Shown one piece after another: positions 74 to 53,276 of a DNA stretch of 64,000 nt (position 1 is its first letter; each line of letters begins with the position of its first letter). The translations under genes were made by a program, and so were the position numbers. The DNA comes from Escherichia coli (lineage in GTDB: Bacteria; Pseudomonadota; Gammaproteobacteria; Enterobacterales; Enterobacteriaceae): NCBI RefSeq assembly GCF_036507355.1, contig NZ_AP027877.1. One strand, given 5' to 3'. The notes under the pieces were generated by a model. It ran no database searches. It saw only the letters and a program-made list of their open reading frames with translations, and was not told the DNA's origin.

Positions 74-1207
74 ATGAAAAGCAAAGTACTGGCACTTTTA
101 ATTCCTGCCCTGCTCGCCGCAGGTGCTGCACATGCAGCCGAAGTTTATAATAAAGACGGCAACAAATTAGATCTGTATGGCAAAGTTGATGGCCTGCATT
201 ATTTTTCAGATAATTCGGCGAAAGATGGCGACCAGAGCTATGCGCGTCTGGGTTTTAAAGGCGAAACCCAAATTAACGATCAACTTACTGGCTACGGTCA
301 ATGGGAATACAATATTCAGGCAAACAACACTGAATCTTCAAAAAACCAGTCATGGACCCGTCTGGCATTTGCCGGACTGAAATTTGCAGATTACGGTTCT
401 TTCGATTACGGACGTAATTATGGCGTAATGTACGACATCGAAGGCTGGACCGATATGCTGCCTGAATTTGGCGGTGACTCTTATACCAATGCAGACAACT
501 TTATGACTGGTCGAGCCAATGGCGTCGCGACTTATCGTAATACTGATTTCTTCGGTCTGGTAAATGGTCTGAACTTCGCGGTGCAGTATCAAGGTAACAA
601 CGAAGGAGCCAGTAATGGTCAGGAAGGCACCAACAACGGACGTGATGTTCGCCATGAAAACGGTGACGGCTGGGGTCTTTCCACAACATATGATTTAGGC
701 ATGGGCTTTAGCGCTGGTGCGGCATACACCTCTTCTGACCGCACCAATGACCAGGTTAACCATACTGCGGCGGGTGGTGATAAAGCAGACGCGTGGACTG
801 CTGGGCTAAAATACGATGCTAACAATATTTACCTGGCAACCATGTATTCAGAAACGCGTAATATGACCCCGTTTGGCGACAGCGATTATGCTGTTGCAAA
901 CAAAACCCAGAACTTTGAAGTCACTGCACAGTACCAGTTTGATTTTGGTCTGCGTCCGGCAGTCTCTTTCCTGATGTCTAAAGGCCGTGACCTGCACGCT
1001 GCCGGTGGTGCAGACAACCCGGCAGGTGTTGATGATAAAGATCTGGTTAAATACGCCGATGTTGGCGCGACTTACTATTTCAATAAAAACATGTCCACTT
1101 ATGTTGACTATAAAATCAACCTGTTGGATGAAGATGACAGTTTCTACGCTGCCAACGGCATCTCTACCGATGATATTGTCGCTTTAGGTCTGGTTTATCA
1201 GTTCTAA
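74..1207 (+). CDS. ompN: outer membrane porin OmpN
   Basis: 377-aa ORF with signal peptide ([21 protein letters not shown]), porin-type beta-strand pattern and C-terminal LVYQF; matches remembered OmpN. Confidence 0.9.
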
Positions 1208-1215
1208 ATCCTCCT

Positions 1216-1239
1216 GCCCGCTGTTATGGCGGGCTTTTT
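1216..1239 (+). terminator. rho-independent terminator after ompN
   Basis: GC stem gcccgc/gcgggc followed by a T-run directly after the ompN stop. Confidence 0.6.
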
Positions 1240-1266
1240 CTGCTTATTCTTCCTCCTTTGATCTAA

Positions 1267-1782
<516 letters not shown>

Positions 1783-1790
1783 CACTAACG

Positions 1791-1815
1791 CCCGCACATT
1801 GCTGCGGGCTTTTTG
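1791..1815 (+). terminator. rho-independent terminator after uspF
   Basis: stem gcccgca/tgcgggc followed by ttttt. Confidence 0.6.
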
Positions 1816-1957
1816 ATTCATTTCGCAAATGTGCTGACATTTTCCCCTCTAATCCGTACCATACACGCCACAGTTTTTATATCAGATTTCTTATGCTGGG
1901 CGTTCCGGCATGACGCATACTCTTCTGATGCCATATAACGAATTGAGTCGCTTTTAA

Positions 1958-2011
1958 ATGTCGCAAAATCAAGAAATTAGCAAGAAAGAACAATACAACC
2001 TGAACAAGTAA
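1958..2011 (+). pseudogene. ttcC: displaced 5' fragment of ttcA at the prophage end (ttcC-like)
   Basis: 17-codon [20 protein letters not shown] closely resembling the ttcA N-terminus at 13115; contains the 26-bp att core. Confidence 0.7.
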
Positions 2012-2110
2012 GGGCAAAAATCACAACTATCTGACTCATAAGTGTTTTACTTATTTTTCAATGTGTTAAACATCATCAGCGAGAACAATAAACTACGATA
2101 ATCAACTCTT

Positions 2111-2160
2111 TTTTTGCCCCTTTTTTGCCCCTTTTGCAGCGTTTTGCCCCATTTTTGCCA
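2111..2160 (+). repeat. three direct TTTGCCCC repeats next to the tail-side att core (putative integrase arm-type sites)
   Basis: tttgcccc at 2114-2121, 2125-2132 and 2144-2151; same motif twice at 13072-13090 beside the int-side core. Confidence 0.5.
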
Positions 2161-2248
2161 CAAAAAAAAATTCCAAAACGTCTCAATCAAAGTCAAACCA
2201 ACCGCAGCACGTTCTTGCTTAAGACGTGCTGCGGCATAATCCCAATGA

Positions 2249-2833
2249 TTACTCCCTGACAGGGTTCGTAGGCCACTCAATATCAGGTGCAGTTGATGTA
2301 TCAACACGGTTCAGCAACACCCGATACTTTTTCCAGGCTTCCAGCAATGAGGTTTCTTCCTCCGTTGCGATTTCCAGATCCACAGCATCCTGAAGTGGCG
2401 CAATATGCTCACTGGCTACCTGCATCAGGCTGTTTTTTGTTTCTTCCGCCTCTCGGATCCGGAACAGTTTTTCTGCTTCTGCATCTTTCACCCAGGCTGT
2501 GCCGTTCCACTTCTGAAACTCCCCTTCCGGCGATAACCAGGTAACATTTTCCGGTAACGGACCGAGTTCAGAAATAAATAACGCGTCCCCTGACGCTACG
2601 TCATAAACCGTTTTACCCCGATGGTCTTCAACGAGATGCCACGATGCCTCATCACTGTTGAAAACAGCCACGAAGCCTGCCGGAATATCTGGCGGTGCAA
2701 TATCGGTACTGTTTGCTGGCAGACCTGTATGAGGCGGAATATATGCATCACCTTCACCAATAAATTCATTAGTTCCGGCCAGCAGATTATAAATTTTTAT
2801 GGTCCGTGGTTGTTCACTCATTCTGAATGCCAT
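2249..2833 (-). CDS. tfaR: tail fibre assembly protein
   Basis: 194-aa [23 protein letters not shown]... typical lambdoid Tfa, directly downstream of the tail fibre fragment. Confidence 0.85.
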
Positions 2834-3750
2834 TATGCAAGCCTCACAATGTAGTTAAATGCGATGTTTTTGACGGTGTTTTCCGCGTTACCCGCAGCGT
2901 TAACGGTGATGGTGTGTCCATGTGAGCCAATCGAAACAGAGTGCGTATGAGCACCAATTCCGACAGTATGTGCGTGAGCACCTGCAGATGCAGCTGTGCC
3001 GCTGACACTATGAGTGTGCGCTCCTGCAGCACTTGTATTCACACTGGCCGCAGACACAACCTTATGTACTGACCCATTTTGTGACTACTGGCTGACTGCT
3101 GATGCGCCTGTGACACTATGAGTATGGTTTCCGGCACTTGCGGCTGTACCGCTCACACTGTGTGTATGTGCCCCGGTGTTATTCGTAGATTTAGTGCCGT
3201 AATCAAACGACGATGTGGTTTTCGTACCCAAATCCGTACTGGATGCGCTGGCGCTGTGGGTGTGCGATTTAATACCGTCCTGTTCCTGAGACAATACGGC
3301 CCGACCACTGGCAGGTTTGCCCTTAATCGTCCAGCCACGCATATCAGGGATCACGCCTGACGGATAAGCGGCTGCAAGTTTCGGGTAAGCAGATTTGTCA
3401 AAAGTTTGCCCCTGCATCAGGGCATAGCCAGACGGAACGGTATCTGATGGCCACGGGATTGGTGCACCGACTGGATAAAACTCTGCAGGAGGATGAGCTG
3501 AGGTGTAAAGCTGCGCCCACGGCGACCAGTTTGCGTCGGTCGTATCCCGTCGTGAACGAATAAATGCCGGAGCATGAGCACCGCTTGTACCACTCCAGCC
3601 GATGAGTAACTCACCTTCGCCAACGGCTGTCATCCCTTTCAGGTGAATGATATTTCCATACGCTGTTGGATATCCGTTGTTATACACCTCGTATAACTCA
3701 AGACCTGTTGCCCCCTGCGTATTGTCTGTCAGCGCGGTTAGCCGCCATTG
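2833..3750 (-). pseudogene. stfR: side tail fibre C-terminal fragment with in-frame amber stop
   Basis: open frame from the TGA at 3751-3753 through ...[23 protein letters not shown]... with [13 protein letters not shown] repeats; TAG at 3085-3087 splits it; N-terminal bulk of the gene absent. Confidence 0.8.
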
Positions 3751-4217
3751 TCACCAAGAAAATCCCCGCCCTGCGACATAGCGATGGAAAGAGCAGGTAT
3801 TGATTCGTAGTACGCCAGCATTTCAGAAAGGATCGCATCCAGTTTCCTTATCGGAAAATAGGCCTGGTCATAGTTGCGATCCACCCGAAACTGGAACTCG
3901 TGATAATCATCATCGAGCTGAATGAAGTATTTACACCCGACCAGTTTTGCCTGGTCGAAACAGGCATTACGGGCGTAAAAAATTGAGCGGCGGTCACAGA
4001 AATTATCGGCTTCGTCAAAACGACTGGCGATATCGGCTTTGGAAAACACCAGCACCTGTTCACCAAATTCAGCCATGTACTGATGCCGTGTCTTATCTTC
4101 ATCATCAACAACGATAAAAATTTTCCCGGTATAGCCAGCACGACGCAACGTCCGGTAAGTCAGAACTTTGTCCGGTCGCCCGTGAGTCAGAATAAAGGCG
4201 CAAAAATCATCACGCAT
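3738..4217 (-). CDS. GT-A fold glycosyltransferase-like protein, probably C-terminally truncated
   Basis: 159 aa from the ATG overlapping the upstream stop (ATGCGTGA) behind a GGAGGAGGA RBS; motifs FILTHGRPD...IFIVVDDED and [23 protein letters not shown] resemble GT2 signatures including DxD. Confidence 0.5.
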
Positions 4218-5001
4218 ATTCCTCCTCCTCACCACCATGCATGATCTCCACCATGCGCTGCGTCATCCGGACAAATCCATTTTCAATAGCCTGCTGATAA
4301 TCAATGATCACCAGCGCCGACTCCTCGAAAAAACACTGAATTTCAGCGGGGGCGTGAGCGTAATAGTCCGCAATTCTGCTGAAATTAAACACCGTGTGAC
4401 GTTCTGCCGCACACAGGAGGAATTTCTCAATATCAGGCTCAAGGGACGCCGAACGTATCCGGCTGATCAGCTCCTGAGTTTTCGTATCGTCGTACAGTTC
4501 ACTGATATCCGGTTTACCGCCCGACGGCTCATAAACAGGCGTATCAATTTTCGTCGTATACGGCTCCTCCTCATTTCCTGTACCGGGCAAAACATCCGTC
4601 AACAGTTCATCAATTTCTGTCGGGATGAAGCCTGTCAGGGAGACATCAAAATCAGCATTGATTAGGTCCGACAGCTCCATCCGCAACAGATCTTCATCCC
4701 AGCCAGCATTCATCGGCAGGCGATTATCTGCCAGGCGGTACGCCTTTTTCTGCTCATCCGTCAGGCCAGACAGAACAATGACCGGAACAGAATCCATTTT
4801 GAGCATTTCAGCCGCCATAACACGACCGTGACCCGCAATAATTTCGCCCTTTTCGTCAATCAGCACCGGATTAGTCCAGCCGAATTGCTTAATACTTTCT
4901 ACCAGTTGTGCCACCTGCTCAGTACTGTGCGTCCTGGCGTTGTGCGCATACGGTGACAATTCTTGTAATGGGCGATAGACTATCTTTAATTTCTCGCTCA
5001 T
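4210..5001 (-). CDS. ParB/Srx-fold (ParB-like nuclease domain) protein, ynaK-like
   Basis: 263-aa ORF; N-terminal region with GHGR motif (IIAGHGRVMAAEML) typical of the ParB/sulfiredoxin fold; acidic C-terminus. Confidence 0.6.
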   Translation of the reverse strand: MSEKLKIVYRPLQELSPYAHNARTHSTEQVAQLVESIKQFGWTNPVLIDEKGEIIAGHGRVMAAEMLKMDSVPVIVLSGLTDEQKKAYRLADNRLPMNAGWDEDLLRMELSDLINADFDVSLTGFIPTEIDELLTDVLPGTGNEEEPYTTKIDTPVYEPSGGKPDISELYDDTKTQELISRIRSASLEPDIEKFLLCAAERHTVFNFSRIADYYAHAPAEIQCFFEESALVIIDYQQAIENGFVRMTQRMVEIMHGGEEEEYA

Positions 5002-5138
5002 ACAGCCTTGCTTTATGAATAAAACGCACCCCAGCAGCCAGTGCTACTGGGGACGGAGGTGTTGCTGGTAAAGTTAGGTATTGGATCAATGAGTGAGTCA
5101 ACATAATATTAAACTCACAATTATAAATCAGCCATATA

Positions 5139-6614
5139 TTAGGAGCGCCAAAAAAAACCTGAAAACAATATAATAACAGGATAAATTTCAAGGCGACCAA
5201 GAATCATAGCTATGCACATTAAACATTTTGCAATGTCATTAAGCACTCCGAATGACGATGCAGTAGCCCCAAAACCTAATCCCATATTATTAATACATGC
5301 AGCCACTGTTGCAAATGATGTAAGAAAATCATATCCCATACCATTTAACACCAGTATAAAAAACACCGTGAAGAGAGTATAAAGAAAAAAGAAACTCCAT
5401 ACAGACCTCATTACACGATCTGTAACTATCTTCCCTCCTACATTTACACTCAACAACGCTCTGGGATGAGAAAGCTGATTTATCTCGTGTTTGCTTTGTT
5501 TGAAAAGTATAAGAAATCGAAGTGACTTAATTCCACCACAAGTTGAACCTATACATCCCCCAAAGAAACTTGACAACAGCAAAAACACTATCGTGTGCGT
5601 GGGCCAACTTGCATAATCCTGCGTAGCTAAACCATTATCAGTGAGCATGGAGCTGGCAAGAAAAAACGAATGAATAAAACTTCCATGCAAGTCATACATA
5701 CCTATATGCCAGACCTGGAAAGAGGTAACAATGATCACCCCTAAGGCTATTAACAGAAAGAAACGAAGTTCAATATCTCTGATTAAAGGTTTTATCGTTT
5801 TCCTGCTAATAACAATATACCAAAGAGTGAAGTTGAAAGCCGATAGCAGGGAAAAAGAACCAGCCACCAGCTCAACCAAATAGTTATTAAAATATCCGAT
5901 ACTCTCGCTATGAGTTGAGAAACCACCAAGCGAAACTGTGGAAATCCCGTGACAAATAGCATCAAACAAAGGCATTCCTGCAAGTCTATAACAGACAATA
6001 CAAGCAATACCTAATAAAGAATAAGTTATCCACAGTGTCCGTGACGTATCGGCCAGGCGGGGAGTGAGTTTGTCATCCTTAAATGGCCCCGGCATTTCTG
6101 ACTGATAAAGCTTTGCACCACCAATACCCAATAATGGCAATACAGCAACCGCCAGAACAATAACTCCTAAACCACCTATAAAATTTAACTGTGACCGATA
6201 GTACAAATATGCCCGAGGTAATGAACTAACATCATCAATTACAGTTGCTCCTGTTGTTGTTATTCCAGAAACCCCTTCAAACAGAGCATCAATGAACGTT
6301 AAATTAAGTTCTGAGTCAATCCATAAAGGGAATGCACTAATAACAGAAAACAAAATCCAAAACATTACAATTATAATAAACCCATCACGGGTACGTAATT
6401 GAATGCCAGATTTCTTAGTTGTATACCACGCTCCGCCACCAATGCAAAAAAATATAACGAAAGTTATAAAGAAAACGAACAGGCTTTTTTCTTTATAAAA
6501 CAATGCTACAACCATTGGTGGCAACATTGAAAGACTATAGAGCCAAACCAGGAACCCACACATATGAGTAACAACTCTTACATGAGATGTATTCATATCT
6601 AAATATTCTTTCAA
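5139..6614 (-). CDS. trkG: Trk potassium uptake protein TrkG (prophage moron)
   Basis: polytopic membrane protein with TrkH/TrkG-type repeats; AT-rich relative to flanks; likely true start at 6596 (MNTSHVRVV...). Confidence 0.9.
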   Translation of the reverse strand: MKEYLDMNTSHVRVVTHMCGFLVWLYSLSMLPPMVVALFYKEKSLFVFFITFVIFFCIGGGAWYTTKKSGIQLRTRDGFIIIVMFWILFSVISAFPLWIDSELNLTFIDALFEGVSGITTTGATVIDDVSSLPRAYLYYRSQLNFIGGLGVIVLAVAVLPLLGIGGAKLYQSEMPGPFKDDKLTPRLADTSRTLWITYSLLGIACIVCYRLAGMPLFDAICHGISTVSLGGFSTHSESIGYFNNYLVELVAGSFSLLSAFNFTLWYIVISRKTIKPLIRDIELRFFLLIALGVIIVTSFQVWHIGMYDLHGSFIHSFFLASSMLTDNGLATQDYASWPTHTIVFLLLSSFFGGCIGSTCGGIKSLRFLILFKQSKHEINQLSHPRALLSVNVGGKIVTDRVMRSVWSFFFLYTLFTVFFILVLNGMGYDFLTSFATVAACINNMGLGFGATASSFGVLNDIAKCLMCIAMILGRLEIYPVIILFSGFFWRS

Positions 6615-6731
6615 TTATAACCACCTTGCTGCAATATTATGATTATACTGTATAAAATTTAACTCCTCTTAGATCTTACTTCACTGTTCCTTATGAAACA
6701 ATCATCAAAATGAATCATATTGTAGTTAAGA

Positions 6732-6862
6732 TTTTACTTTAAACACTGCTCGGTTATGTATTGCTGAGCACCTTCAAGTTGGGCCTGCATCATTACCAGT
6801 CGTTCCCGGAGGGTGAAATAATCCCGTTCAGCGGTGTCTGCCAGTCGGGGGGAGGCTGCATT
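6732..6862 (-). pseudogene. rzpR: Rz-like endopeptidase C-terminal fragment
   Basis: frame reading ...LADTAERDYFTLRERLVMMQAQLEGAQQYITEQCLK-stop, matching the Rz C-terminus; cut off by IS3 at 6863. Confidence 0.6.
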
Positions 6863-6892
6863 TGATCCTACCCACGTAATATGGACACAGGC

Positions 6893-7759
6893 CTAAGCGA
6901 GGTTCTGGTTTTCAAATTGTTCCGGACTGAGGCCGCCACACCAACTGTGCCGCCGCCACCGATTGTAATCACATTCGATATAATTAAACACCGTTGCCCG
7001 CATTATTTCCCGGCTGATAAAGTGTTCTCCATGGATACATTCCACTTTCAGCGAATGAAAGAAGCTTTCCACGCAGGCATTATCGTAGCAGCAACCTTTT
7101 GCGCTCATACTTCCACGCAGATTATGCCGCTTCAGTTGCGCCTGATAATCTGCTGAACAGTACTGGCCTCCACGGTCCGTGTGAACGATAACGTTCCGGG
7201 GCCTCTTACGCCGCCACAGCGCCATCTGCAGGGCATCGCAGGCCAGTTGCGCCGTCATGCGTGGCGACATTGACCAGCCAATAACGGCACGTGACCACAG
7301 GTCAATGACCACTGCCAGATACAGCCAGCCTTCATCTGTACGTAAGTACGTGATGTCTCCTGCCCACTTCTGGTTCGGGCCACTGGCGTAAAAATCCTGC
7401 TCCAACAGATTTTCTGACACAGGCAGGCCGTGTGCGCGGTAGCTGACCGGGCTGAACTTCCGGGAGGCCTTTGCCCTCAGTCCCTGACGGCGCAGGCTTG
7501 CCGCCACGGTTTTTACGTTAAAGGGGTAACCCTGAGCACGCAGTTCATCCGTCAGGCGTGGGGCACCGTAACGCTGTTTTGACCGGGTAAAAGCCGCGAG
7601 GACAACGCTGTCGCAGTGTTGGCGGAACTGCTGACGCGTGCTTATCCTTGTCCGCCGCTGACACCACGTATACCAGCCGCTGCGGGCCACCCGGAGCACG
7701 CGGCACATTGCTTTGATGCTGAACTCAGCCTGATGTTTTTCAATAAAGACATACTTCAT
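6893..7759 (-). CDS. insF: IS3 transposase OrfB (DDE integrase domain)
   Basis: 288-aa [35 protein letters not shown]... with DDE-type catalytic region. Confidence 0.9.
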
Positions 7760-8064
7760 TTCAGGCGCTTCGCGAAGTATGTCGCGGCCTTTTGGAGGAT
7801 AGCCAGCTCTTCATCCCGTTCTGCCAGCTGGCGTTTGAGACGTGCAATCTCGGTAGACATCTCCAGTTCACGTTCAGAAGACGTCTGCTGATTTTGCTGT
7901 TTACTGCGCCAGTTGTAGAGCTGTGATTCATACAGGCTGAGTTCACGGGCTGCGGCAGTAACACCGATGCGTTCAGCAAGCTTCAGGGCTTCACTGCGAA
8001 ATTCAGGCGAATGCTGTTTACGGGGTTTTTTACTGGTTGATACTGTTTTTGTCATGTGAGTCAC
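7756..8064 (-). CDS. insE: IS3 transposase OrfA
   Basis: 102-aa HTH protein [34 protein letters not shown]... Confidence 0.9.
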
Positions 8065-8120
8065 CTCTGACTGAGAGTTTACTCACTTAGCCGCGTGTCC
8101 ACTATTGCTGGGTAAGATCA

Positions 8121-9500
8121 CCGGACGCAACTGAACATCATCAGGACACGCAGCCGCTGGATGCTCAGTCACAGGTAAATTCTGTTGATGCGAAATATCA
8201 GGAACTGCGGGCAGAACTCCATGAAGCCCGGAAAAACATTCCATCAAAAAATCCTGTCGATGCCGATAAATTGCTTGCTGCATCACGTGGTGAATTTGTT
8301 GACGGAATTAGCGACCCGAACGATCCGAAATGGGTAAAGGGGATCCAGACTCGCGATTGTGTGTACCAGAACCAGCCAGAAACGGAAAAAACCAGCCCAG
8401 ATATGAATCAACCTGAGCCAGTAGTGCAACAGGAACCGGAAATAGCCTGCAATGCCTGCGGCCAGACTGGCGGGGATAACTGCCCTGACTGTGGTGCGGT
8501 GATGGGCGACGCAACATACCAGGAAACATTCGATGAAGAGAGTCAGGTTGAAGCTAAGGAAAATGATCCGGAGGAAATGGAAGGCGCTGAACATCCGCAC
8601 AATGAGAATGCTGGCAGCGATCCGCATCGCGATTGCAGTGATGAAACTGGCGAAGTCGCAGATCCCGTAATCGTAGAAGACATAGAGCCAGGTATTTATT
8701 ACGGAATTTCGAATGAGAATTACCACGCGGGTCCCGGTATCAGTAAGTCTCAGCTCGATGACATTGCTGATACTCCGGCACTATATTTGTGGCGTAAAAA
8801 TGCCCCCGTGGACACCACAAAGACAAAAACGCTCGATTTAGGAACTGCTTTCCACTGCCGGGTACTTGAACCGGAAGAATTCAGTAACCGCTTTATCGTA
8901 GCACCTGAATTTAACCGCCGTACAAACGCCGGAAAAGAAGAAGAGAAAGCGTTTCTGATGGAATGCGCAAGCACAGGAAAAACGGTTATCACTGCGGAAG
9001 AAGGCCGGAAAATTGAACTCATGTATCAAAGCGTTATGGCTTTGCCGCTGGGGCAATGGCTTGTTGAAAGCGCCGGACACGCTGAATCATCAATTTACTG
9101 GGAAGATCCTGAAACAGGAATTTTGTGTCGGTGCCGTCCGGACAAAATTATCCCTGAATTTCACTGGATCATGGACGTGAAAACTACGGCGGATATTCAA
9201 CGATTCAAAACCGCTTATTACGACTACCGCTATCACGTTCAGGATGCATTCTACAGTGACGGTTATGAAGCACAGTTTGGAGTGCAGCCAACTTTCGTTT
9301 TTCTGGTTGCCAGCACAACTATTGAATGCGGACGTTATCCGGTTGAAATTTTCATGATGGGCGAAGAAGCAAAACTGGCAGGTCAACAGGAATATCACCG
9401 CAATCTGCGAACCCTGTCTGACTGCCTGAATACCGATGAATGGCCAGCTATTAAGACATTATCACTGCCCCGCTGGGCTAAGGAATATGCAAATGACTAA
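8121..9500 (+). pseudogene. recE: exonuclease VIII (RecE) C-terminal fragment, N-terminally truncated at the IS3 junction
   Basis: frame open from the IS3 boundary; ends ...[13 protein letters not shown] and overlaps the recT start as in Rac; about 460 of ~866 codons remain. Confidence 0.8.
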
Positions 9501-10302
9501 GCAACCACCAATCGCAAAAGCCGATCTGCAAAAAACTCAGGGAAACCGTGCACCAGCAGCAGTTAAAAATAGCGACGTGATTAGTTTTATTAACCAGCCA
9601 TCAATGAAAGAGCAACTGGCAGCAGCTCTTCCACGCCATATGACGGCTGAACGTATGATCCGTATCGCCACCACAGAAATTCGTAAAGTTCCGGCGTTAG
9701 GAAACTGTGACACTATGAGTTTTGTCAGTGCGATCGTACAGTGTTCACAGCTCGGACTTGAGCCAGGTAGCGCCCTCGGTCATGCATATTTACTGCCTTT
9801 TGGTAATAAAAACGAAAAGAGCGGTAAAAAGAACGTTCAGCTAATCATTGGCTATCGCGGCATGATTGATCTGGCTCGCCGTTCTGGTCAAATCGCCAGC
9901 CTGTCAGCCCGTGTTGTCCGTGAAGGTGACGAGTTTAGCTTCGAATTTGGCCTTGATGAAAAGTTAATACACCGCCCGGGAGAAAACGAAGATGCCCCGG
10001 TTACCCACGTCTATGCTGTCGCAAGACTGAAAGACGGAGGTACTCAGTTTGAAGTTATGACGCGCAAACAGATTGAGCTGGTGCGCAGCCTGAGTAAAGC
10101 TGGTAATAACGGGCCGTGGGTAACTCACTGGGAAGAAATGGCAAAGAAAACGGCTATTCGTCGCCTGTTCAAATATCTGCCCGTATCAATTGAGATCCAG
10201 CGTGCAGTATCAATGGATGAAAAGGAACCACTGACAATCGATCCTGCAGATTCCTCTGTATTAACCGGGGAATACAGTGTAATCGATAATTCAGAGGAAT
10301 AA
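9493..10302 (+). CDS. recT: recombinase RecT (single-strand annealing protein)
   Basis: 269 aa starting [24 protein letters not shown]... Confidence 0.9.
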
Positions 10303-10431
10303 TTCAGCCTGGCGGTGTAATGCACCGCCAACTTGAAATATTTTTTATGAGAAAAATTATGAGATATGACAATGTTGGTGATGCTGCCAACTTACTGATT
10401 TAGTGTATGATGGTGTTTTTGAGGTGCTCCA

Positions 10432-10707
10432 GTGGCTTCTGTTTCTATCAGCTGTCCCTCCTGTTCAGCTACTGACGGGGTGGTGCGTAACGGCAAAAGC
10501 ACCGCCGGACATCAGCGCTATCTCTGCTCTCACTGCCGTAAAACATGGCAACTGCAGTTCACTTACACCGCTTCTCAACCCGGTACGCACCAGAAAATCA
10601 TTGATATGGCCATGAATGGCGTTGGATGCCGGGCAACAGCCCGCATTATGGGCATTGGCCTCAACACGATTTTACGTCACTTAAAAAACTCAGGCCGCAG
10701 TCGGTAA
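10432..10707 (+). CDS. insA: IS1 InsA
   Basis: 91-aa [23 protein letters not shown]... zinc-finger/HTH protein; A6C frameshift motif near 10683. Confidence 0.9.
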
Positions 10708-11129
10708 CCTCGCGCATACAGCCGGGCAGTGACGTCATCGTCTGCGCGGAAATGGACGAACAGTGGGGCTATGTCGGGGCTAAATCGCGCCAGCGCTGGC
10801 TGTTTTACGCGTATGACAGGCTCCGGAAGACGGTTGTTGCGCACGTATTCGGTGAACGCACGATGGCGACGCTGGGGCGTCTTATGAGCCTGCTGTCACC
10901 CTTTGACGTGGTGATATGGATGACGGATGGCTGGCCGCTGTATGAATCCCGCCTGAAGGGAAAGCTGCACGTAATCAGCAAGCGATATACGCAGCGAATT
11001 GAGCGGCATAACCTGAATCTGAGGCAGCACCTGGCACGGCTGGGACGGAAGTCGCTGTCGTTCTCAAAATCGGTGGAGCTGCATGACAAAGTCATCGGGC
11101 ATTATCTGAACATAAAACACTATCAATAA
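10626..11129 (+). CDS. insB: IS1 InsB (expressed as the InsAB' frameshift fusion)
   Basis: 167-aa ORF overlapping insA in the -1 frame. Confidence 0.85.
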
Positions 11130-11322
11130 GTTGGAGTCATTACCGACAATGTTAAACCATGTCCATTTTGTGGTTGTCCATCAGTAACGGTGAAAGCCAT
11201 TTCAGGATATTACCGAGCGAAGTGTAACGGATGCGAATCCCGAACCGGTTATGGTGGAAGTGAAAAAGAAGCACTCGAAAGATGGAATAAACGAACCACT
11301 GGAAATAATAATGGAGGTGTTC

Positions 11323-11532
11323 ATGTATAAAATTACCGCCACTATTGAAAAGGAAGGTGGCACTCCTACTAACTGGACAAGATATTCAAAATCTAAACTA
11401 ACGAAATCAGAATGCGAAAAAATGCTCTCAGGTAAAAAAGAAGCAGGCGTTTCCAGAGAGCAGAAAGTAAAACTGATAAATTTTAATTGCGAGAAACTTC
11501 AGTCCTCGAGAATTGCATTGTATTCAAATTAA
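11323..11532 (+). CDS. ydaC: Rac prophage small protein YdaC
   Basis: 69 aa MYKITATIEKEGGTPTNWTRYSKSKL...; conserved position between ralR and xis. Confidence 0.7.
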   Translation: MYKITATIEKEGGTPTNWTRYSKSKLTKSECEKMLSGKKEAGVSREQKVKLINFNCEKLQSSRIALYSN

Positions 11533-11610
11533 AACTTCATAGCTGATTATTAATAATCAACATCGGGCGTCAATTTCAGTCTAACATTGGCGCCTGCCAG
11601 AGGTGATGCG

Positions 11611-11826
11611 ATGGCACAAGTAATCTTTAATGAAGAGTGGATGGTTGAATACGGCCTGATGCTTCGCACTGGTCTGGGGGCCAGACAAATTGAAGCATAC
11701 CGCCAGAACTGTTGGGTGGAGGGCTTCCACTTCAAACGAGTATCTCCTTTAGGTAAGCCAGACAGCAAACGAGGGATTATCTGGTACAACTATCCAAAGA
11801 TAAATCAGTTTATCAAAGACTCATGA
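11611..11826 (+). CDS. xisR: prophage excisionase
   Basis: small protein [33 protein letters not shown]... immediately upstream of the integrase. Confidence 0.7.
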
Positions 11827-11827
11827 T

Positions 11828-13063
11828 ATGTCTAAATTACCAACAGGTGTCGAGATTAGAGGTAGATACATTCGCATCTGGTTCATGTTTCGAGGAAAAC
11901 GATGTCGGGAAACATTAAAAGGCTGGGAGATTACAAACAGTAATATTAAAAAGGCCGGAAATTTAAGAGCGCTGATAGTTCATGAAATAAACTCCGGTGA
12001 ATTTGAGTATTTAAGACGTTTTCCCCAGTCCAGCACTGGGGCAAAAATGGTGACAACGAGAGTCATAAAAACGTTCGGAGAGCTTTGTGATATCTGGACA
12101 AAAATTAAAGAGACAGAGTTAACAACAAACACAATGAAGAAAACGAAATCACAATTAAAAACACTCAGAATAATAATTTGTGAAAGTACCCCGATATCAC
12201 ATATTCGTTATAGCGATATCTTAAACTACCGGAATGAACTGCTGCATGGAGAAACGCTTTACCTGGATAATCCAAGATCCAACAAAAAAGGAAGAACCGT
12301 GCGCACAGTTGATAACTATATCGCCCTGCTCTGTTCGCTGTTGCGTTTTGCGTATCAGTCGGGATTTATATCAACCAAACCATTTGAAGGAGTAAAAAAA
12401 TTACAGCGAAACAGAATAAAGCCTGATCCGTTATCTAAAACAGAATTCAATGCATTAATGGAAAGTGAAAAAGGACAGAGCCAGAACTTGTGGAAATTTG
12501 CCGTTTACTCAGGACTTCGTCACGGGGAACTGGCAGCTCTGGCGTGGGAGGATGTGGATCTCGAAAAGGGAATAGTGAATGTCAGAAGAAACCTGACGAT
12601 ACTTGATATGTTCGGTCCCCCAAAAACAAATGCCGGGATCCGAACAGTAACACTACTGCAGCCTGCTCTTGAAGCACTGAAGGAGCAATACAAACTGACC
12701 GGGCATCATCGCAAAAGCGAAATCACCTTTTATCATCGGGAGTACGGCAGAACCGAAAAGCAAAAACTGCATTTTGTTTTCATGCCCAGGGTGTGTAACG
12801 GAAAACAAAAACCTTATTACTCGGTAAGCAGTTTGGGGGCAAGGTGGAATGCAGCAGTAAAACGTGCTGGTATTCGCCGCCGTAATCCGTACCATACGCG
12901 GCATACTTTTGCCTGCTGGCTGTTGACGGCAGGAGCGAACCCGGCATTTATAGCCAGCCAAATGGGGCATGAAACTGCGCAGATGGTGTATGAAATTTAC
13001 GGTATGTGGATTGATGACATGAACGACGAACAGATAGCCATGTTGAATGCGCGGTTATCGTAG
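11828..13063 (+). CDS. intR: tyrosine-type prophage integrase
   Basis: 411 aa, lambda Int-like, C-terminal RHTFA...Y catalytic region; next to the att core. Confidence 0.9.
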   Translation: MSKLPTGVEIRGRYIRIWFMFRGKRCRETLKGWEITNSNIKKAGNLRALIVHEINSGEFEYLRRFPQSSTGAKMVTTRVIKTFGELCDIWTKIKETELTTNTMKKTKSQLKTLRIIICESTPISHIRYSDILNYRNELLHGETLYLDNPRSNKKGRTVRTVDNYIALLCSLLRFAYQSGFISTKPFEGVKKLQRNRIKPDPLSKTEFNALMESEKGQSQNLWKFAVYSGLRHGELAALAWEDVDLEKGIVNVRRNLTILDMFGPPKTNAGIRTVTLLQPALEALKEQYKLTGHHRKSEITFYHREYGRTEKQKLHFVFMPRVCNGKQKPYYSVSSLGARWNAAVKRAGIRRRNPYHTRHTFACWLLTAGANPAFIASQMGHETAQMVYEIYGMWIDDMNDEQIAMLNARLS

Positions 13064-13071
13064 TTGCAAAG

Positions 13072-13090
13072 TTTGCCCCCAATTTGCCCC
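13072..13090 (+). repeat. two direct TTTGCCCC repeats between the int stop and the att core (putative arm-type sites)
   Basis: gtttgcccccaatttgcccca; same motif as at 2111-2160. Confidence 0.5.
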
Positions 13091-13114
13091 ATTTAGTACC
13101 AGGGAACTGAAATA

Positions 13115-14050
13115 ATGCAAGAAAATCAACAAATTACAAAGAAAGAACAATACAACCTGAACAAATTACAAAAACGCCTGCGTCGTAACGTGGGCGAAGC
13201 CATTGCTGACTTCAATATGATTGAAGAAGGCGATCGCATCATGGTTTGCCTCTCCGGGGGTAAAGACAGCTATACCATGCTGGAGATTCTGCGCAATTTG
13301 CAGCAAAGCGCGCCAATCAATTTTTCGCTGGTGGCTGTTAACCTCGATCAAAAGCAACCGGGCTTCCCGGAACACGTTCTGCCCGAGTATCTTGAAAAGC
13401 TGGGCGTTGAGTACAAGATTGTTGAAGAGAACACTTACGGTATCGTGAAAGAGAAGATTCCAGAGGGCAAAACCACTTGCTCACTGTGTTCTCGGCTACG
13501 TCGCGGTATCCTTTATCGCACCGCAACGGAACTGGGGGCGACGAAGATCGCGCTGGGTCACCATCGTGACGATATCCTGCAAACGCTGTTCTTAAATATG
13601 TTCTACGGCGGCAAGATGAAAGGTATGCCTCCGAAATTGATGAGCGATGATGGCAAACATATCGTGATTCGTCCGCTGGCCTACTGCCGCGAGAAAGATA
13701 TTCAGCGCTTTGCCGATGCAAAAGCGTTCCCGATTATTCCGTGCAACCTGTGCGGTTCACAGCCTAACCTGCAACGTCAGGTGATTGCTGACATGTTGCG
13801 TGACTGGGATAAACGTTATCCGGGGCGTATCGAGACGATGTTCAGCGCGATGCAGAATGTGGTGCCATCGCATCTGTGCGATACCAACCTGTTCGATTTT
13901 AAAGGCATTACCCACGGTTCTGAAGTGGTTAACGGGGGTGATCTGGCGTTTGATCGCGAAGAGATCCCACTACAACCGGCGGGCTGGCAGCCAGAAGAAG
14001 ATGAAAATCAGTTGGATGAGTTACGGCTGAATGTGGTTGAAGTGAAATAA
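13115..14050 (+). CDS. ttcA: tRNA 2-thiocytidine biosynthesis protein TtcA
   Basis: 311 aa with SGGKDS PP-loop and CxxC motifs; 5' end contains the att core. Confidence 0.9.
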
Positions 14051-14095
14051 CCAGGATAGCGCCCGATGCGCAAGCGTATCGGGCTACTCTTATGG

Positions 14096-14130
14096 AGGCC
14101 GGATAAGACGCGGCCAGCGTCGCATCCGGC
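14096..14130. repeat. REP (repetitive extragenic palindrome) element
   Basis: gccggataagacgcggccagcgtcgcatccggc. Confidence 0.7.
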
Positions 14131-14178
14131 AATCCCGAATAAGATGTTTACTCTTGCACCCGGCAATTCAACATTTCA

Positions 14179-15552
14179 TTATTTTAATAACCGCACCCGG
14201 CACGTTTTTCCTTTAATCTTCCCGCCCTGTAACTGTTTCCATGCTTTATGAGCAACAGCCTGACGGACCGCGACATAGACATGCGCCGGATGCACGGCGA
14301 TTTTGCCAATATCTGCGCCATCAAGCCCGATATCTCCTGTCAGTGCACCTAATACATCACCCGGGCGCATTTTGGCTTTTTTCCCGCCATCGATACACAA
14401 CGTTGCCATTTCTGCTTCCAGCGTCACAATGGAACTATTAGCTGGCGGCGTTTGCCAGTTAAGTTTTATCTGCAACATGTCAGAAATGATATTGGCCCGC
14501 TGTGCTTCTTCCGGAGCACAGAAACTGATCGCCAGACCGCTATTTCCTGCACGAGCTGTACGACCGATGCGATGTACATGAACTTCAGGGTCCCACGCCA
14601 GCTCAAAGTTCACCACCAGCTCAAGCGATTTAATATCCAGACCACGCGCAGCAACATCAGTCGCGACCAGTACACGGGCGCTACCGTTAGCAAAACGTAC
14701 CAGGGTCTGATCGCGATCGCGTTGCTCCAAATCGCCGTGTAATGACAATGCACTTTGCCCTACTTCATTCAGCGCGTCGCAGACAGCCTGGCAATCTTTT
14801 TTGGTATTGCAAAACACCACGCAAGAGGATGGCTGATGCAAGCTTAATAACCGTTGCAACAGAGGAATTTTGCCTTTACTGGATGTCTCATAAAATTGTT
14901 GATCAATGGGTGGCAAAGCATCTGTTGAGTCAATTTCAATCGCCAAAGGATCGCGTTGCACTCGTCCGCTGATTGCAGCGATGGCTTCCGGCCAGGTTGC
15001 TGAAAACAGAAGCGTCTGTCGAGATGCAGGCGCAAAACGGATGACATCATCAATGGCATCGCTAAATCCCATATCCAGCATGCGGTCGGCCTCATCCATC
15101 ACCAAAGTATTCAGCGCATCCAGTGATACCGTGCCTTTTTGCAAGTGATCCAGCAAACGACCCGGCGTTGCCACGATAATATGCGGCGCATGTTGCAACG
15201 AATCACGCTGCATACCGAACGGTTGACCACCGCACAACGTCAAAATTTTGGTATTTGGCAGAAAACGCGCCAGCCGACGCAATTCACCTGCCACCTGATC
15301 CGCCAGTTCACGCGTAGGACACAGCACTAAAGCCTGGGTTTGAAATAGCGACGCATCAATTTGCTGTAACAAGCCGAGGCCAAAAGCCGCCGTTTTGCCG
15401 CTGCCGGTTTTCGCCTGCACGCGAACATCTTTTCCGGCAAGGATCGCCGGAAGCGCGGCGGCCTGCACCGGCGTCATGGTTAAATAACCCAACTCATTAA
15501 GGTTCGTGAGTTGGGCGGGAGGCAAAACATTCAGGGTAGAAAAAGCGGTCAC
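14179..15552 (-). CDS. dbpA: ATP-dependent RNA helicase DbpA (DEAD-box)
   Basis: 457 aa with Q-motif, GSGKT Walker A and DEAD box. Confidence 0.9.
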   Translation of the reverse strand: MTAFSTLNVLPPAQLTNLNELGYLTMTPVQAAALPAILAGKDVRVQAKTGSGKTAAFGLGLLQQIDASLFQTQALVLCPTRELADQVAGELRRLARFLPNTKILTLCGGQPFGMQRDSLQHAPHIIVATPGRLLDHLQKGTVSLDALNTLVMDEADRMLDMGFSDAIDDVIRFAPASRQTLLFSATWPEAIAAISGRVQRDPLAIEIDSTDALPPIDQQFYETSSKGKIPLLQRLLSLHQPSSCVVFCNTKKDCQAVCDALNEVGQSALSLHGDLEQRDRDQTLVRFANGSARVLVATDVAARGLDIKSLELVVNFELAWDPEVHVHRIGRTARAGNSGLAISFCAPEEAQRANIISDMLQIKLNWQTPPANSSIVTLEAEMATLCIDGGKKAKMRPGDVLGALTGDIGLDGADIGKIAVHPAHVYVAVRQAVAHKAWKQLQGGKIKGKTCRVRLLK

Positions 15553-30822: not shown

Positions 30823-31635
30823 GTGCTGGATGTTCATCCCAGTGGTTTTTACGCCTGGCTTCAGCAGCCGCATTCACAACGCCATCAGGCAGACCTGAGG
30901 CTGACAGGGCAGATTAAACAGTTCTGGCTGGAATCGGGATGCGTCTATGGTTATCGCAAAATCCATCTGGATCTGCGGGACAGCGGGCAACAGTGCGGAG
31001 TGAACAGAGTCTGGCGACTGATGAAACGTGTCGGGATAAAGGCTCAGGTCGGATACCGGAGCCCGCGGGCACGTAAAGGCGAGGCCAGTATCGTGTCGCC
31101 CAACAGGCTCCAGCGACAGTTCAATCCGGATGCTCCGGATAAGCGTTGGGTAACGGACATAACCTACATCAGGACCCACGAAGGCTGGCTGTATCTTGCC
31201 GTGGTTGTTGATCTGTTCTCACGCAAAATTATCGGCTGGTCCATGCAATCCCGGATGACAAAGGACATTGTCCTGAACGCACTGCTGATGGCTGTATGGC
31301 GCCGTAATCCCCAAAAACAGGTGCTGGTTCATTCGGATCAGGGCAGTCAGTACACAAGCCATGAGTGGCAGTCGTTCCTGAAATCACACGGCCTGGATGG
31401 CAGCATGAGCCGTCGCGGTAACTGCCATGATAATGCGGTTGCAGAAAGCTTTTTCCAGTTGTTGAAACGCGAACGGATAAAGAAAAAGATCTACGGAACG
31501 CGGGAAGAAGCCCGCAGCGATATTTTTGATTACATCGAAATGTTTTATAACAGTAAGCGTCGGCATGGTTCCAGCGATCAGATGTCACCGACAGAATATG
31601 AAAACCAGTATTATCAACGGCTCGGAAGTGTCTAG
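30823..31635 (+). CDS. IS3-family transposase OrfB (DDE integrase)
   Basis: 270 aa with DDE residues in WVTDITY...HSDQGSQYTS...CHDNAVAESFF context. Confidence 0.85.
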   Translation: MLDVHPSGFYAWLQQPHSQRHQADLRLTGQIKQFWLESGCVYGYRKIHLDLRDSGQQCGVNRVWRLMKRVGIKAQVGYRSPRARKGEASIVSPNRLQRQFNPDAPDKRWVTDITYIRTHEGWLYLAVVVDLFSRKIIGWSMQSRMTKDIVLNALLMAVWRRNPQKQVLVHSDQGSQYTSHEWQSFLKSHGLDGSMSRRGNCHDNAVAESFFQLLKRERIKKKIYGTREEARSDIFDYIEMFYNSKRRHGSSDQMSPTEYENQYYQRLGSV

Positions 31636-50596: not shown

Positions 50597-50972
50597 GAGA
50601 TGTTCCTTTTTATTTAATCCACATAACCTGCCAGGGGCGCAGCGTTATTTCATTACCCAATATATCAACTTCACTAATCAGATCCCGACCATGCAGATCA
50701 GTAATATTTACATGCTGAATATTTTCACTGACATTAAACAATCCAGTCAGACAATTACCATCAGCGTTACTTCTTTGAATACGCATTACGGATGAATTAA
50801 CCGTATCAATGGTAAAATTATTATCCGGATGAAACTCGTTATGGCTGCGACGAAGTGTAATTAAACGCGACAACTCATGATATACCGCATGCCTTAATGT
50901 AGCTTCATCGTTCAGTTGGTGATGCTGCCAACTTACTGATTTAGTGTATGATGGTGTTTTTGAGGTGCTCCA

Positions 50973-51248
50973 GTGGCTTCTGTTTCTATCAGCTGTCCCT
51001 CCTGTTCAGCTACTGACGGGGTGGTGCGTAACGGCAAAAGCACCGCCGGACATCAGCGCTATCTCTGCTCTCACTGCCGTAAAACATGGCAACTGCAGTT
51101 CACTTACACCGCTTCTCAACCCGGTACGCACCAGAAAATCATTGATATGGCCATGAATGGCGTTGGATGCCGGGCAACAGCCCGCATTATGGGCATTGGC
51201 CTCAACACGATTTTACGTCACTTAAAAAACTCAGGCCGCAGTCGGTAA
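50973..51248 (+). CDS. insA: IS1 InsA
   Basis: identical to the insA at 10432. Confidence 0.9.
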
Positions 51249-51670
51249 CCTCGCGCATACAGCCGGGCAGTGACGTCATCGTCTGCGCGGAAATGGACGA
51301 ACAGTGGGGCTATGTCGGGGCTAAATCGCGCCAGCGCTGGCTGTTTTACGCGTATGACAGGCTCCGGAAGACGGTTGTTGCGCACGTATTCGGTGAACGC
51401 ACGATGGCGACGCTGGGGCGTCTTATGAGCCTGCTGTCACCCTTTGACGTGGTGATATGGATGACGGATGGCTGGCCGCTGTATGAATCCCGCCTGAAGG
51501 GAAAGCTGCACGTAATCAGCAAGCGATATACGCAGCGAATTGAGCGGCATAACCTGAATCTGAGGCAGCACCTGGCACGGCTGGGACGGAAGTCGCTGTC
51601 GTTCTCAAAATCGGTGGAGCTGCATGACAAAGTCATCGGGCATTATCTGAACATAAAACACTATCAATAA
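51167..51670 (+). CDS. insB: IS1 InsB
   Basis: identical to the insB at 10626. Confidence 0.85.
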
Positions 51671-53276
51671 GTTGGAGTCATTACCCGTTCAGTTCTCGTG
51701 TTATCTCTTCACTGTGATATTTTTTACGGTTAATCGCACGGTTATATCCGAGTTTTTCGACACCTGCGTAATCATTACGCGAGCCCAGAATACTTTGAAT
51801 ATATATCGCTGGCACACCGGGGAAACTTAACAAAATCGCATGGGCAAGGATAAACCTGGCGCAACGTTCTTCATCGCTACTCTCGCGGCGGCTTAACGCA
51901 TCCATATAGGTGACATTTATTTCATAGGGACTGCGCGTACCGTCGGGATTATTTTTCCAGTTTACTAATGCACCTTCCTGCTGTAATGCCTCGATCAGCG
52001 CTAATATTTCGCTTTCTGGTAACAAGCCCCGCAGTGGGTTCAGCCCGATGCCATCGTGAGAGGCGAGGAAGTTAAACCAGGTCGTTTTACCGGAGGGCAA
52101 GCTCAGACTTTGCGCCCACTGGCACAGCGCCTCGACGTTCTGTTTTTGCACCGCATGTAACACCAGCGGCGGCAGCGAGAACTGGTACACCATATGCGCT
52201 TCGTCATCGCCTTCGCCAAAGTAAGCAATGTTATCTTTATGCGGAACATTCGTCTCAGTAATAATCACCGTACCTGGCGCGATGTCATCAATAATCGACC
52301 GTAACAGTTTGATAATCAGATGTGTTTTTTCCAGATGGATGCAGCTTGTTCCCGGCTCTTTCCACATAAAGCCAACGGCATCCAGACGGACATATTCTGC
52401 GCCCTTTTCCAGGTAGCACAGCAATACATCCACCATCGCCAGCAACACTTCAGGGCTACGGTAATTGAGGTCAATTTGATCGTCGCTAAAGGTGGTCCAT
52501 AAATGGCGCGTGGAATTATCATCCATTTGAAACGGCGTTAATAGCGGTAACGCACGCGGACGGGTGACGGCACTGAGATCGGTTTTCGGATCAACCGCAA
52601 TAAAGAAATCTTTAAAACCCGGAAGCTGTTGCAAATAGTTTTTAAACCATTCACTTTTTGCCGACATATGGTTGCAGACAAAATCAAACATTAAATGACT
52701 GCATTCACCGAGCTGCTGAATATCCTGCCACTCCCCCGCTTCACTGGCGACCTGATGATAATCAATTACCGAAAATCCATCATCAGATGACCATGGATAA
52801 AAAGGTAATAAATGAACATGTGAAAAAATGCTTTGCAGCCATTGGTGGTAAAACTGATTAAATGTGGGTAGTGGTTTTAAATCATTACTGTGAAATTGAT
52901 CGGCATAGGTAATTAACACGACGTCACTTTCATCCCAGTGTTTTTTACGTCGCTGTGTAATTAATCGTTTCGCACTCTCAAGACGCGTTACAAGTTTCTG
53001 TAAATGAGTTGCGGTAAATGTTCCACCGTAGATTTCGCCCAGGTAATCCGTAATTTTCTGTTTCATGTTGCCTTTCCGTGGTAGCGGTCCCATGAAACGA
53101 GAGACTACTCCGCAGAAAATAAACTGTCAATTGAGCACAAGGGTTTTAGTCACGCAGGAAATCATTTTTTACCAGGGAAAAAGCGTATTTGTGAGCTGAC
53201 GCAAATAATCTATAGGGATGTAAATAAGGTGTGACAGAAAAAAACGGCGCATAAGCGCCGCTCATGGTGAATTCTT

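Follow-up and report, generated by a model that had tools for sequence, protein, structure and literature searches.

The 64,000-nucleotide stretch of Escherichia coli DNA analysed here (NCBI RefSeq assembly GCF_036507355.1, contig NZ_AP027877.1), referred to below as the window, is a segment of E. coli-type chromosome carrying a heavily eroded Rac prophage whose orientation is flipped relative to that in K-12. A complete copy of IS3 stands in this remnant between the 3' end of the Rz gene and a truncated recE, and very probably represents the scar of a deletion that has left a recE pseudogene together with a promoterless recT, most likely silent. Association of the deletion with IS3 is supported by the structure of the junction. 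In the order of events that we infer, the deletion would have arisen at an end of IS3, with the loss of 7.35 kb from the early and immunity region (relative to K-12), either as a one-ended adjacent deletion that followed a single insertion or by recombination between two like-oriented IS3 copies. A recE fragment with neither a promoter nor a usable start at the junction would thereby have been left behind beside an intact but promoterless recT, both presumably silent as they are in K-12, while the IS3 transposase promoter and its one documented outward promoter point into the Rz remnant and trkG.

Structure of the Rac remnant and its IS3 junction

The first 16 kb of the window were aligned with the Rac region of K-12 MG1655 (NC_000913.3:1410000-1436000, locus L001). 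The K-12 sequences flanking Rac were collinear with window positions 967-2234 and 11145-15063, the second of these intervals matching ralR-rcbA-xisR-intR-ttcA-dbpA, and the remnant was located between uspF/ompN and ttcA, as is the case for a prophage integrated at ttcA. Within it, ynaK-trkG and the 3' part of rzpR (window 4748-6862) matched K-12 Rac at 99.9%, as did nucleotides 1222-2601 of recE followed by recT and the start of ralR (window 8121-10376). The trkG gene, encoding the Rac-borne Trk potassium transporter, is intact on the minus strand at 5139-6596 (99.9% identity to K-12 trkG; Pfam TrkH, E = 5e-145) and lies downstream of the right end of IS3, on the same strand as the transposase. 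On the far side, the recE'-recT segment is bounded by an IS1 at 10377-11144 (plus strand), inserted in ralR after codon 6 and flanked by a 9-bp duplication, GACAATGTT. The RalA antitoxin RNA is intact, although ralR has been cut by IS1 separately from the IS3-linked loss.

The IS3 element is complete (1258 bp, positions 6863-8120, minus strand) and is identical over all 1258 bp to annotated IS3 copies in many E. coli genomes. Its features are those of the IS3 family: a length of about 1258 bp, imperfect terminal inverted repeats (TGATC...GATCA), of which the right (IRR, 6863-6902) and the left (IRL, 8081-8120) are identical at 28 of 40 positions, an intact orfA with a helix-turn-helix match (7756-8055, minus strand; Pfam HTH_Tnp_1) and an intact orfB of the DDE/rve type (6893-7759, minus strand; Pfam rve, rve_2 and HTH_21), the two frames overlapping at 7756-7759. 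The 3-bp target duplication is absent around this copy, the flanking triplets being ATT and CCG, which indicates a secondary rearrangement and does not put the identity of the element as IS3 in doubt.

The initial annotation had placed IS3 exactly at the junction between an Rz fragment and a truncated recE, with Rz cut off at the right inverted repeat, the recE frame opening at the left one, and the intervening phage genes and some 400 recE codons missing, and the alignment confirmed this description, the exact number of missing codons being 407. The 3' fragment of Rz (rzpR), comprising 42 codons and the stop, occupies 6734-6862 on the minus strand (L001 13517-13645; Pfam Phage_lysis positions 86-125 of 126, E = 2e-15), includes the 3' 70 nucleotides of the embedded Rz1/rzoR gene (6793-6862), and is cut at the right end of IS3 (breakpoint 6862/6863). 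At the left end (breakpoint 8120/8121), IS3 is abutted by the first base of recE codon 408. Compared with K-12 Rac, the element stands in place of 7,350 bp (L001 6167-13516), a loss that takes in recE codons 1-407, racC, ydaE, kilR, sieB, ydaF, ydaG, racR, ydaS, ydaT, ydaU, ydaV, ydaW and the 5' part of rzpR; racR, ydaS/T and kilR are thus all lost together.

The recE fragment (8121-9500, plus strand; Pfam DUF3799/PDDEXK) contains only codons 408-866 and the stop of the 866-codon gene, and its product is identical to residues 408-866 of K-12 RecE at 458 of 459 positions, the single difference being D455A. The C-terminal exonuclease region, which had been taken to be retained, is indeed present, and the solved nuclease domain is kept whole, since PDB entry 3H4R aligns to residues 605-866. 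The adjoining recT (9493-10302, plus strand; 269 amino acids; Pfam RecT, E = 1e-55) is likewise intact, as had been stated; it encodes the K-12 RecT protein without change and differs from the K-12 gene at one synonymous base, has an AAGGA Shine-Dalgarno sequence of its own, and starts within the end of recE. Over the recE'-recT DNA as a whole, 2 of 2256 bases differ from K-12, and neither difference creates a promoter.

Occurrence of the two junctions and route of the deletion

Each of the two junctions was searched separately in a collection of 5,426 complete RefSeq E. coli genomes. The junction between IRL and recE codon 408 was found in three of them (Ec1120, OY754416 and OY754389), where it is the same as in the window over the 200 bases searched and recT is intact. 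The two of these remnants that were fetched (Ec1120 and OY754416) differ from the window in that ralR is intact and in that the IRR abuts a DUF977 gene rather than Rz'/trkG. The junction between Rz-ATT and IRR was found in about ten of the 5,426 genomes, and among the six carriers fetched the IRL adjoined four flanks other than that of the window, or five partners when recE-408 of the window is included. At this end MB50 has recE codon 827, B27 a lysozyme gene, PSJ-14 and EC529 an HTH gene, and ETEC1720 and ETEC1739 a lambda-like ral-cIII-kil-gam-bet region. An assembly artefact in the window was considered and rejected, as finished genomes show each junction independently. The two junctions occurred together in none of the 5,426 genomes, and the allele of the window is therefore absent from this collection.

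Two positions distinguish the IS3 copy of the window from the alleles found at the shared junctions of MB50 and of Ec1120, the latter being the only one of the three IRL|recE-408 carriers compared. These positions lie 45 and 1059 nucleotides from the tip of IRR; the change in orfA is synonymous, and the other is a K to Q change near the C-terminus of OrfB. Because of these two bases, common descent of the shared junctions would imply later gene conversion or mutation.

Deletion of DNA adjacent to IS3 is expected to leave the element at the junction without a target duplication, with one of its ends fixed and the flank of the other varying among relatives, and this is the configuration found. 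The window also resembles the insertion-deletion(-excision) events shown experimentally for IS3 (Kanai et al. 2022, PMC8860574) in that the element borders a deletion of neighbouring DNA. The initial annotation had proposed an IS3 insertion followed by adjacent deletion; of this proposal the deletion junction stands, in the absence of a 3-bp duplication, and adjacent deletion is a plausible route, but recombination between two IS3 copies also accounts for the junction, and a fixed IS end with variable partners is also what such recombination would be expected to produce.

Under that alternative, one IS3 would have inserted in Rz at ATT and a second, in direct orientation, in recE at CCG, and RecA-dependent recombination between them would have deleted the intervening DNA. 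This course of events is quite possible, if somewhat short of probable. In its favour, each window junction is common to a different set of genomes, rearrangement between IS3 copies evidently takes place at this locus, as the B27 and ETEC1720 types join trkG-Rz'|IS3 to other prophage contexts, and IS3 has inserted in Rz repeatedly. Against it, neither parental reciprocal junction was present in the 5,426 complete genomes: a synthetic query for recE...CCG|IRR matched none of them, and one for IRL|ATT-Rz gave no exact match in any, yielding near misses only, in A23 and USMARC-51688 (of which A23 was fetched; 6 bp off, target duplication GGC) and in 23CRST025 (44 bp off, target duplication ATA). 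Together with an insertion in recT of AR_0061 (TAT), those of A23 and 23CRST025 are simple IS3 insertions elsewhere in Rac that carry a 3-bp target duplication. An ancestral simple insertion at the Rz site or at the recE site of the window was, by the same reciprocal queries, found in none of the 5,426 genomes, and the recombination of two copies requires two such unobserved intermediates as against one for adjacent deletion.

Transcription and translation of the recE fragment

As the native upstream region has been deleted, any expression of recE'-recT must come from IS3. The sbcA alleles supply transcription into recE, and a translational fusion where one is needed. The window is like the sbcA mutants of K-12 in that the same genes of the same prophage are concerned and the RacR-controlled early region no longer stands upstream, and unlike them in that recE has neither a promoter directed into it nor a start at the junction, and in that the IS3 promoters read the other way. 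The initial annotation had made expression of a sbcA-type allele depend on an outward promoter at the IS3 end or on a hybrid one, and neither was seen: no convincing sigma-70-like site facing recE was found on the plus strand of 7500-8620, either in a consensus scan or in a second, looser scan, and none was seen that would transcribe into recE-recT. The best plus-strand match upstream of recE (TTTACG-16-GATACT, inside IS3; 4/6 and 4/6) was rejected. The only good plus-strand site (8758-8787, 10/12) was discarded as a recE promoter, since it falls within recE downstream of residue 560 and has the same sequence as in K-12, where recET is silent.

The transposase genes of IS3, orfA and orfB, read away from recE on the minus strand, as had been recognised. 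IS3 was reportedly described as a mobile promoter by Charlier and co-workers in 1982, and the window copy is like that case in that the outward promoter P3R is present; it differs in that P3R here faces Rz'/trkG, and any effect would be on trkG and not on recET. The P3R hexamers (TTGGTG ... CAATTT, attributed to Charlier et al. 1982 in PMC12095673) are located at 6914-6944 on the minus strand and are directed out of IRR, away from recE. The two documented promoters of IS3, P3L and P3R, share the direction of the transposase (PMC8860574), which in the window is towards Rz'/trkG. For the opposite end of the element, a 150-bp IS3 left end showed no detectable promoter activity when both strands were assayed (PMC12095673); according to the same study, single point mutations can create promoters in IS3 ends. 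The left 150 bp of the window copy are identical to other IS3 copies and thus wild type, and comparison with those copies revealed no new promoter mutation in this end.

With regard to translation, the recE frame is open for ten IS3-derived codons upstream of the junction, as far as a TAG at 8088-8090 inside the left repeat, and between this TAG and a TTG at 8271 (residue 458) it contains no ATG, GTG or TTG. Further internal candidates are ATG 8403 (residue 502), ATG 8502 (residue 535) and ATG 8577 (residue 560), of which only the last is preceded by a Shine-Dalgarno-like sequence, a GGAGG 2 nucleotides upstream. This spacing is nearer than the usual Shine-Dalgarno optimum. Given that there is no promoter and no usable start at the junction, the recE fragment is regarded as a pseudogene, and PGAP annotates the same fragment in Ec1120 as an incomplete pseudogene 'missing N-terminus'.

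The initial annotation had held that C-terminal RecE fragments remain active if transcribed, and the literature concurs: residues 564-866 of RecE work with RecT if expressed (PMC11611040), and, once introduced into lambda, RecE from residue 588 together with RecT matched the activity of lambda Red (PMC3945230). In MG1655, recET is described as "completely repressed" in the absence of activating sbcA mutations (PMC3945230). A natural sbcA-like allele, in which transcription from a cryptic outward or hybrid promoter in the left end of IS3, or read-through across the element, would be combined with an internal start near residue 560, could draw on the intact nuclease domain (564-866 according to PMC11611040, and matched by PDB 3H4R) and recT, on the loss of racR and the native regulatory region, on the in-frame ATG 8577 with GGAGG just upstream, and on the ability of single point mutations to create promoters in IS3 ends (PMC12095673). 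It is nonetheless very unlikely to apply: the scans of 7500-8620 yielded no sigma-70-like site towards recE, the IS3 left end is of the wild-type form for which neither strand was active (PMC12095673), both documented IS3 promoters are directed away from recE, the 2-nucleotide GGAGG-ATG spacing is below the usual optimum, and the internal sequences concerned are also found in K-12, where they are silent. On these sequence grounds, recE'-recT are most likely silent. Expression from a weak or non-sigma-70 promoter, by antisense transcription running across IS3 or by internal initiation, for example at ATG 8577, may still occur. That Rz of Rac is a hot spot for IS3 insertion and a hub for rearrangements between prophages is more likely than a sbcA-like allele at this locus.

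Other truncated recE alleles and the erosion of Rac

A segment comprising recE(408-866) and recT was present at a coverage of at least 80% in 1,692 genomes, compared with 1,441 for the first 1,221 nucleotides of recE, and an N-terminally truncated recE beside recT is thus not rare. Deletions that fuse the lysis cassette with recE were found, as independent events, at recE codons 240, 334, 410, 816 and 827. The remnants concerned (the BE2-5 type, JNQH497, AR_0061, FT130 and MB50) are like the window in having kept trkG and recT, lost the early and immunity region and truncated recE, often with IS3 or IS1 at the junction; they are unlike it in their breakpoints, and some have microhomology and no IS. 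The breakpoint in AR_0061 (recE nucleotide 1230) lies within 9 bp of that in the window (nucleotide 1222) and was considered as a trace of IS3 excision, an idea that was set aside because, with six breakpoints in 2.6 kb, the chance of such a coincidence is roughly 10%.

That IS3 merely inserted into a pre-existing deletion junction, for example an IS-free Rz|recE-240 join of the BE2-5 type, and took no part in the deletion has precedents in the IS-free lysis-cassette|recE deletions of the BE2-5 type and AR_0061 and in 23CRST025, where a simple IS3 insertion with the duplication ATA has entered such a remnant, but it is exceedingly improbable here, since a simple insertion would give a 3-bp duplication and flanks of ATT and CCG without one rule out insertion into a prior junction and indicate a rearrangement at an IS3 end, while an IS-free join of Rz-ATT to recE-408 occurs in no genome and sequence present in the BE2-5 type is missing from the window on both sides.

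The gene content of the window fits the published pattern of Rac erosion, in which the genes present are highly variable between strains but trkG and recE are well conserved, the majority of strains lack half of the prophage, the toxin genes kilR, ralR and ydaS have disappeared from most of them, and ydaS and racR are always found together (PMC5700373). In annotation, the recE fragment is to be labelled a pseudogene, and the orientation of IS3 implies that any IS-driven transcription heads to trkG. Expression of the fragment would make the strain a naturally RecET-proficient E. coli, of interest for recombineering and for phage-prophage mosaicism, a prospect that the sequence does not support; if the locus did behave as a sbcA-like allele, the RecE nuclease domain and RecT would be constitutively available and recombination with linear or phage DNA would increase, and the transcription responsible, which may be weak or condition-dependent, would start in the left end of IS3 or pass across the element. 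The feature carries little weight alone and is best seen as ordinary prophage decay, adding one more allele to the well-documented erosion of this prophage, a process that spares trkG and the recE/recT end and eliminates the toxin and immunity genes.

IS3 insertions and deletion junctions around Rz

Three distinct IS3 insertion sites, distributed across different genomes (loci L002, L009, L007 and L008), lie within ~45 bp of Rz (window 6818-6862), and are distinguished by a target-site duplication ATA, a target-site duplication GGC and the ATT site. At least eight distinct positions of the junction with the right inverted repeat (IRR) were found within ~570 bp of Rz and the lysozyme gene across 21 genomes; the query consisted of the IRR only, so that a bias towards either orientation is not readable from these counts. 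The Rz/lysozyme region may be a hot spot for IS3.

In a sample of other E. coli biased in favour of recT-retaining genomes, independent deletions fuse the Rac lysis cassette to recE codons 240, 334, 410, 816 and 827 (loci L003, L005, L014, L004 and L007). Two of these deletions carry no IS and display 2-3 bp of microhomology, and the breakpoint of AR_0061, at codon 410, is just 9 bp away from the recE breakpoint of the window. In ETEC1720 and ETEC1739 (loci L012 and L013), the junction of trkG and the Rz remnant with IS3 is as in the window and is joined at the left inverted repeat to a lambda-like ral-cIII-kil-gam-bet block, indicating that the same IS3 copy connects the Rac trkG module with a different phage recombination module.

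A separate weak match to the IS3 orfA/orfB region (70% over ~150 nt) was observed at window 31156-31307, which may be part of a further element of the IS3 family.

Direction of any IS3-driven transcription

The documented outward promoter P3R of IS3 (window 6914-6944, minus strand) and the transposase genes are directed across the 129-bp Rz remnant at trkG (window 5139-6596, minus strand). As no terminator-like site was found by scanning between P3R or the transposase genes and trkG, any IS3-driven transcription would act on trkG and not on recET.

Gene content of the Rac remnant and IS1 copies

The Rac remnant (window 2007-13164) spans ~11.2 kb, of which IS elements make up 2 kb, compared with 23 kb in K-12. 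It seems to retain intR, xisR and both att cores, and pinR, ynaE and ynaM are likewise absent. K-12 lacks the Rac region at window 3738-5001 (minus strand), which encodes a full-length ParB_N-domain protein of 263 aa, represented in K-12 by the 87-aa remnant ynaK, and an adjoining truncated TET-associated glycosyltransferase (PF20691), labelled 'GREB1-related' in other genomes.

The toxin gene ralR (window 10359-11330) is split after codon 6 by IS1 (window 10377-11144; 9-bp duplication GACAATGTT), while the RalA antitoxin sRNA (window 11329-11507; Rfam RF02694, 225 bits) is intact and is therefore an orphan antitoxin RNA. A second IS1 copy (window 50918-51685), identical and in the same orientation, lies ~40 kb from the ralR copy, and the pair is a substrate for loss of the 40 kb in between.
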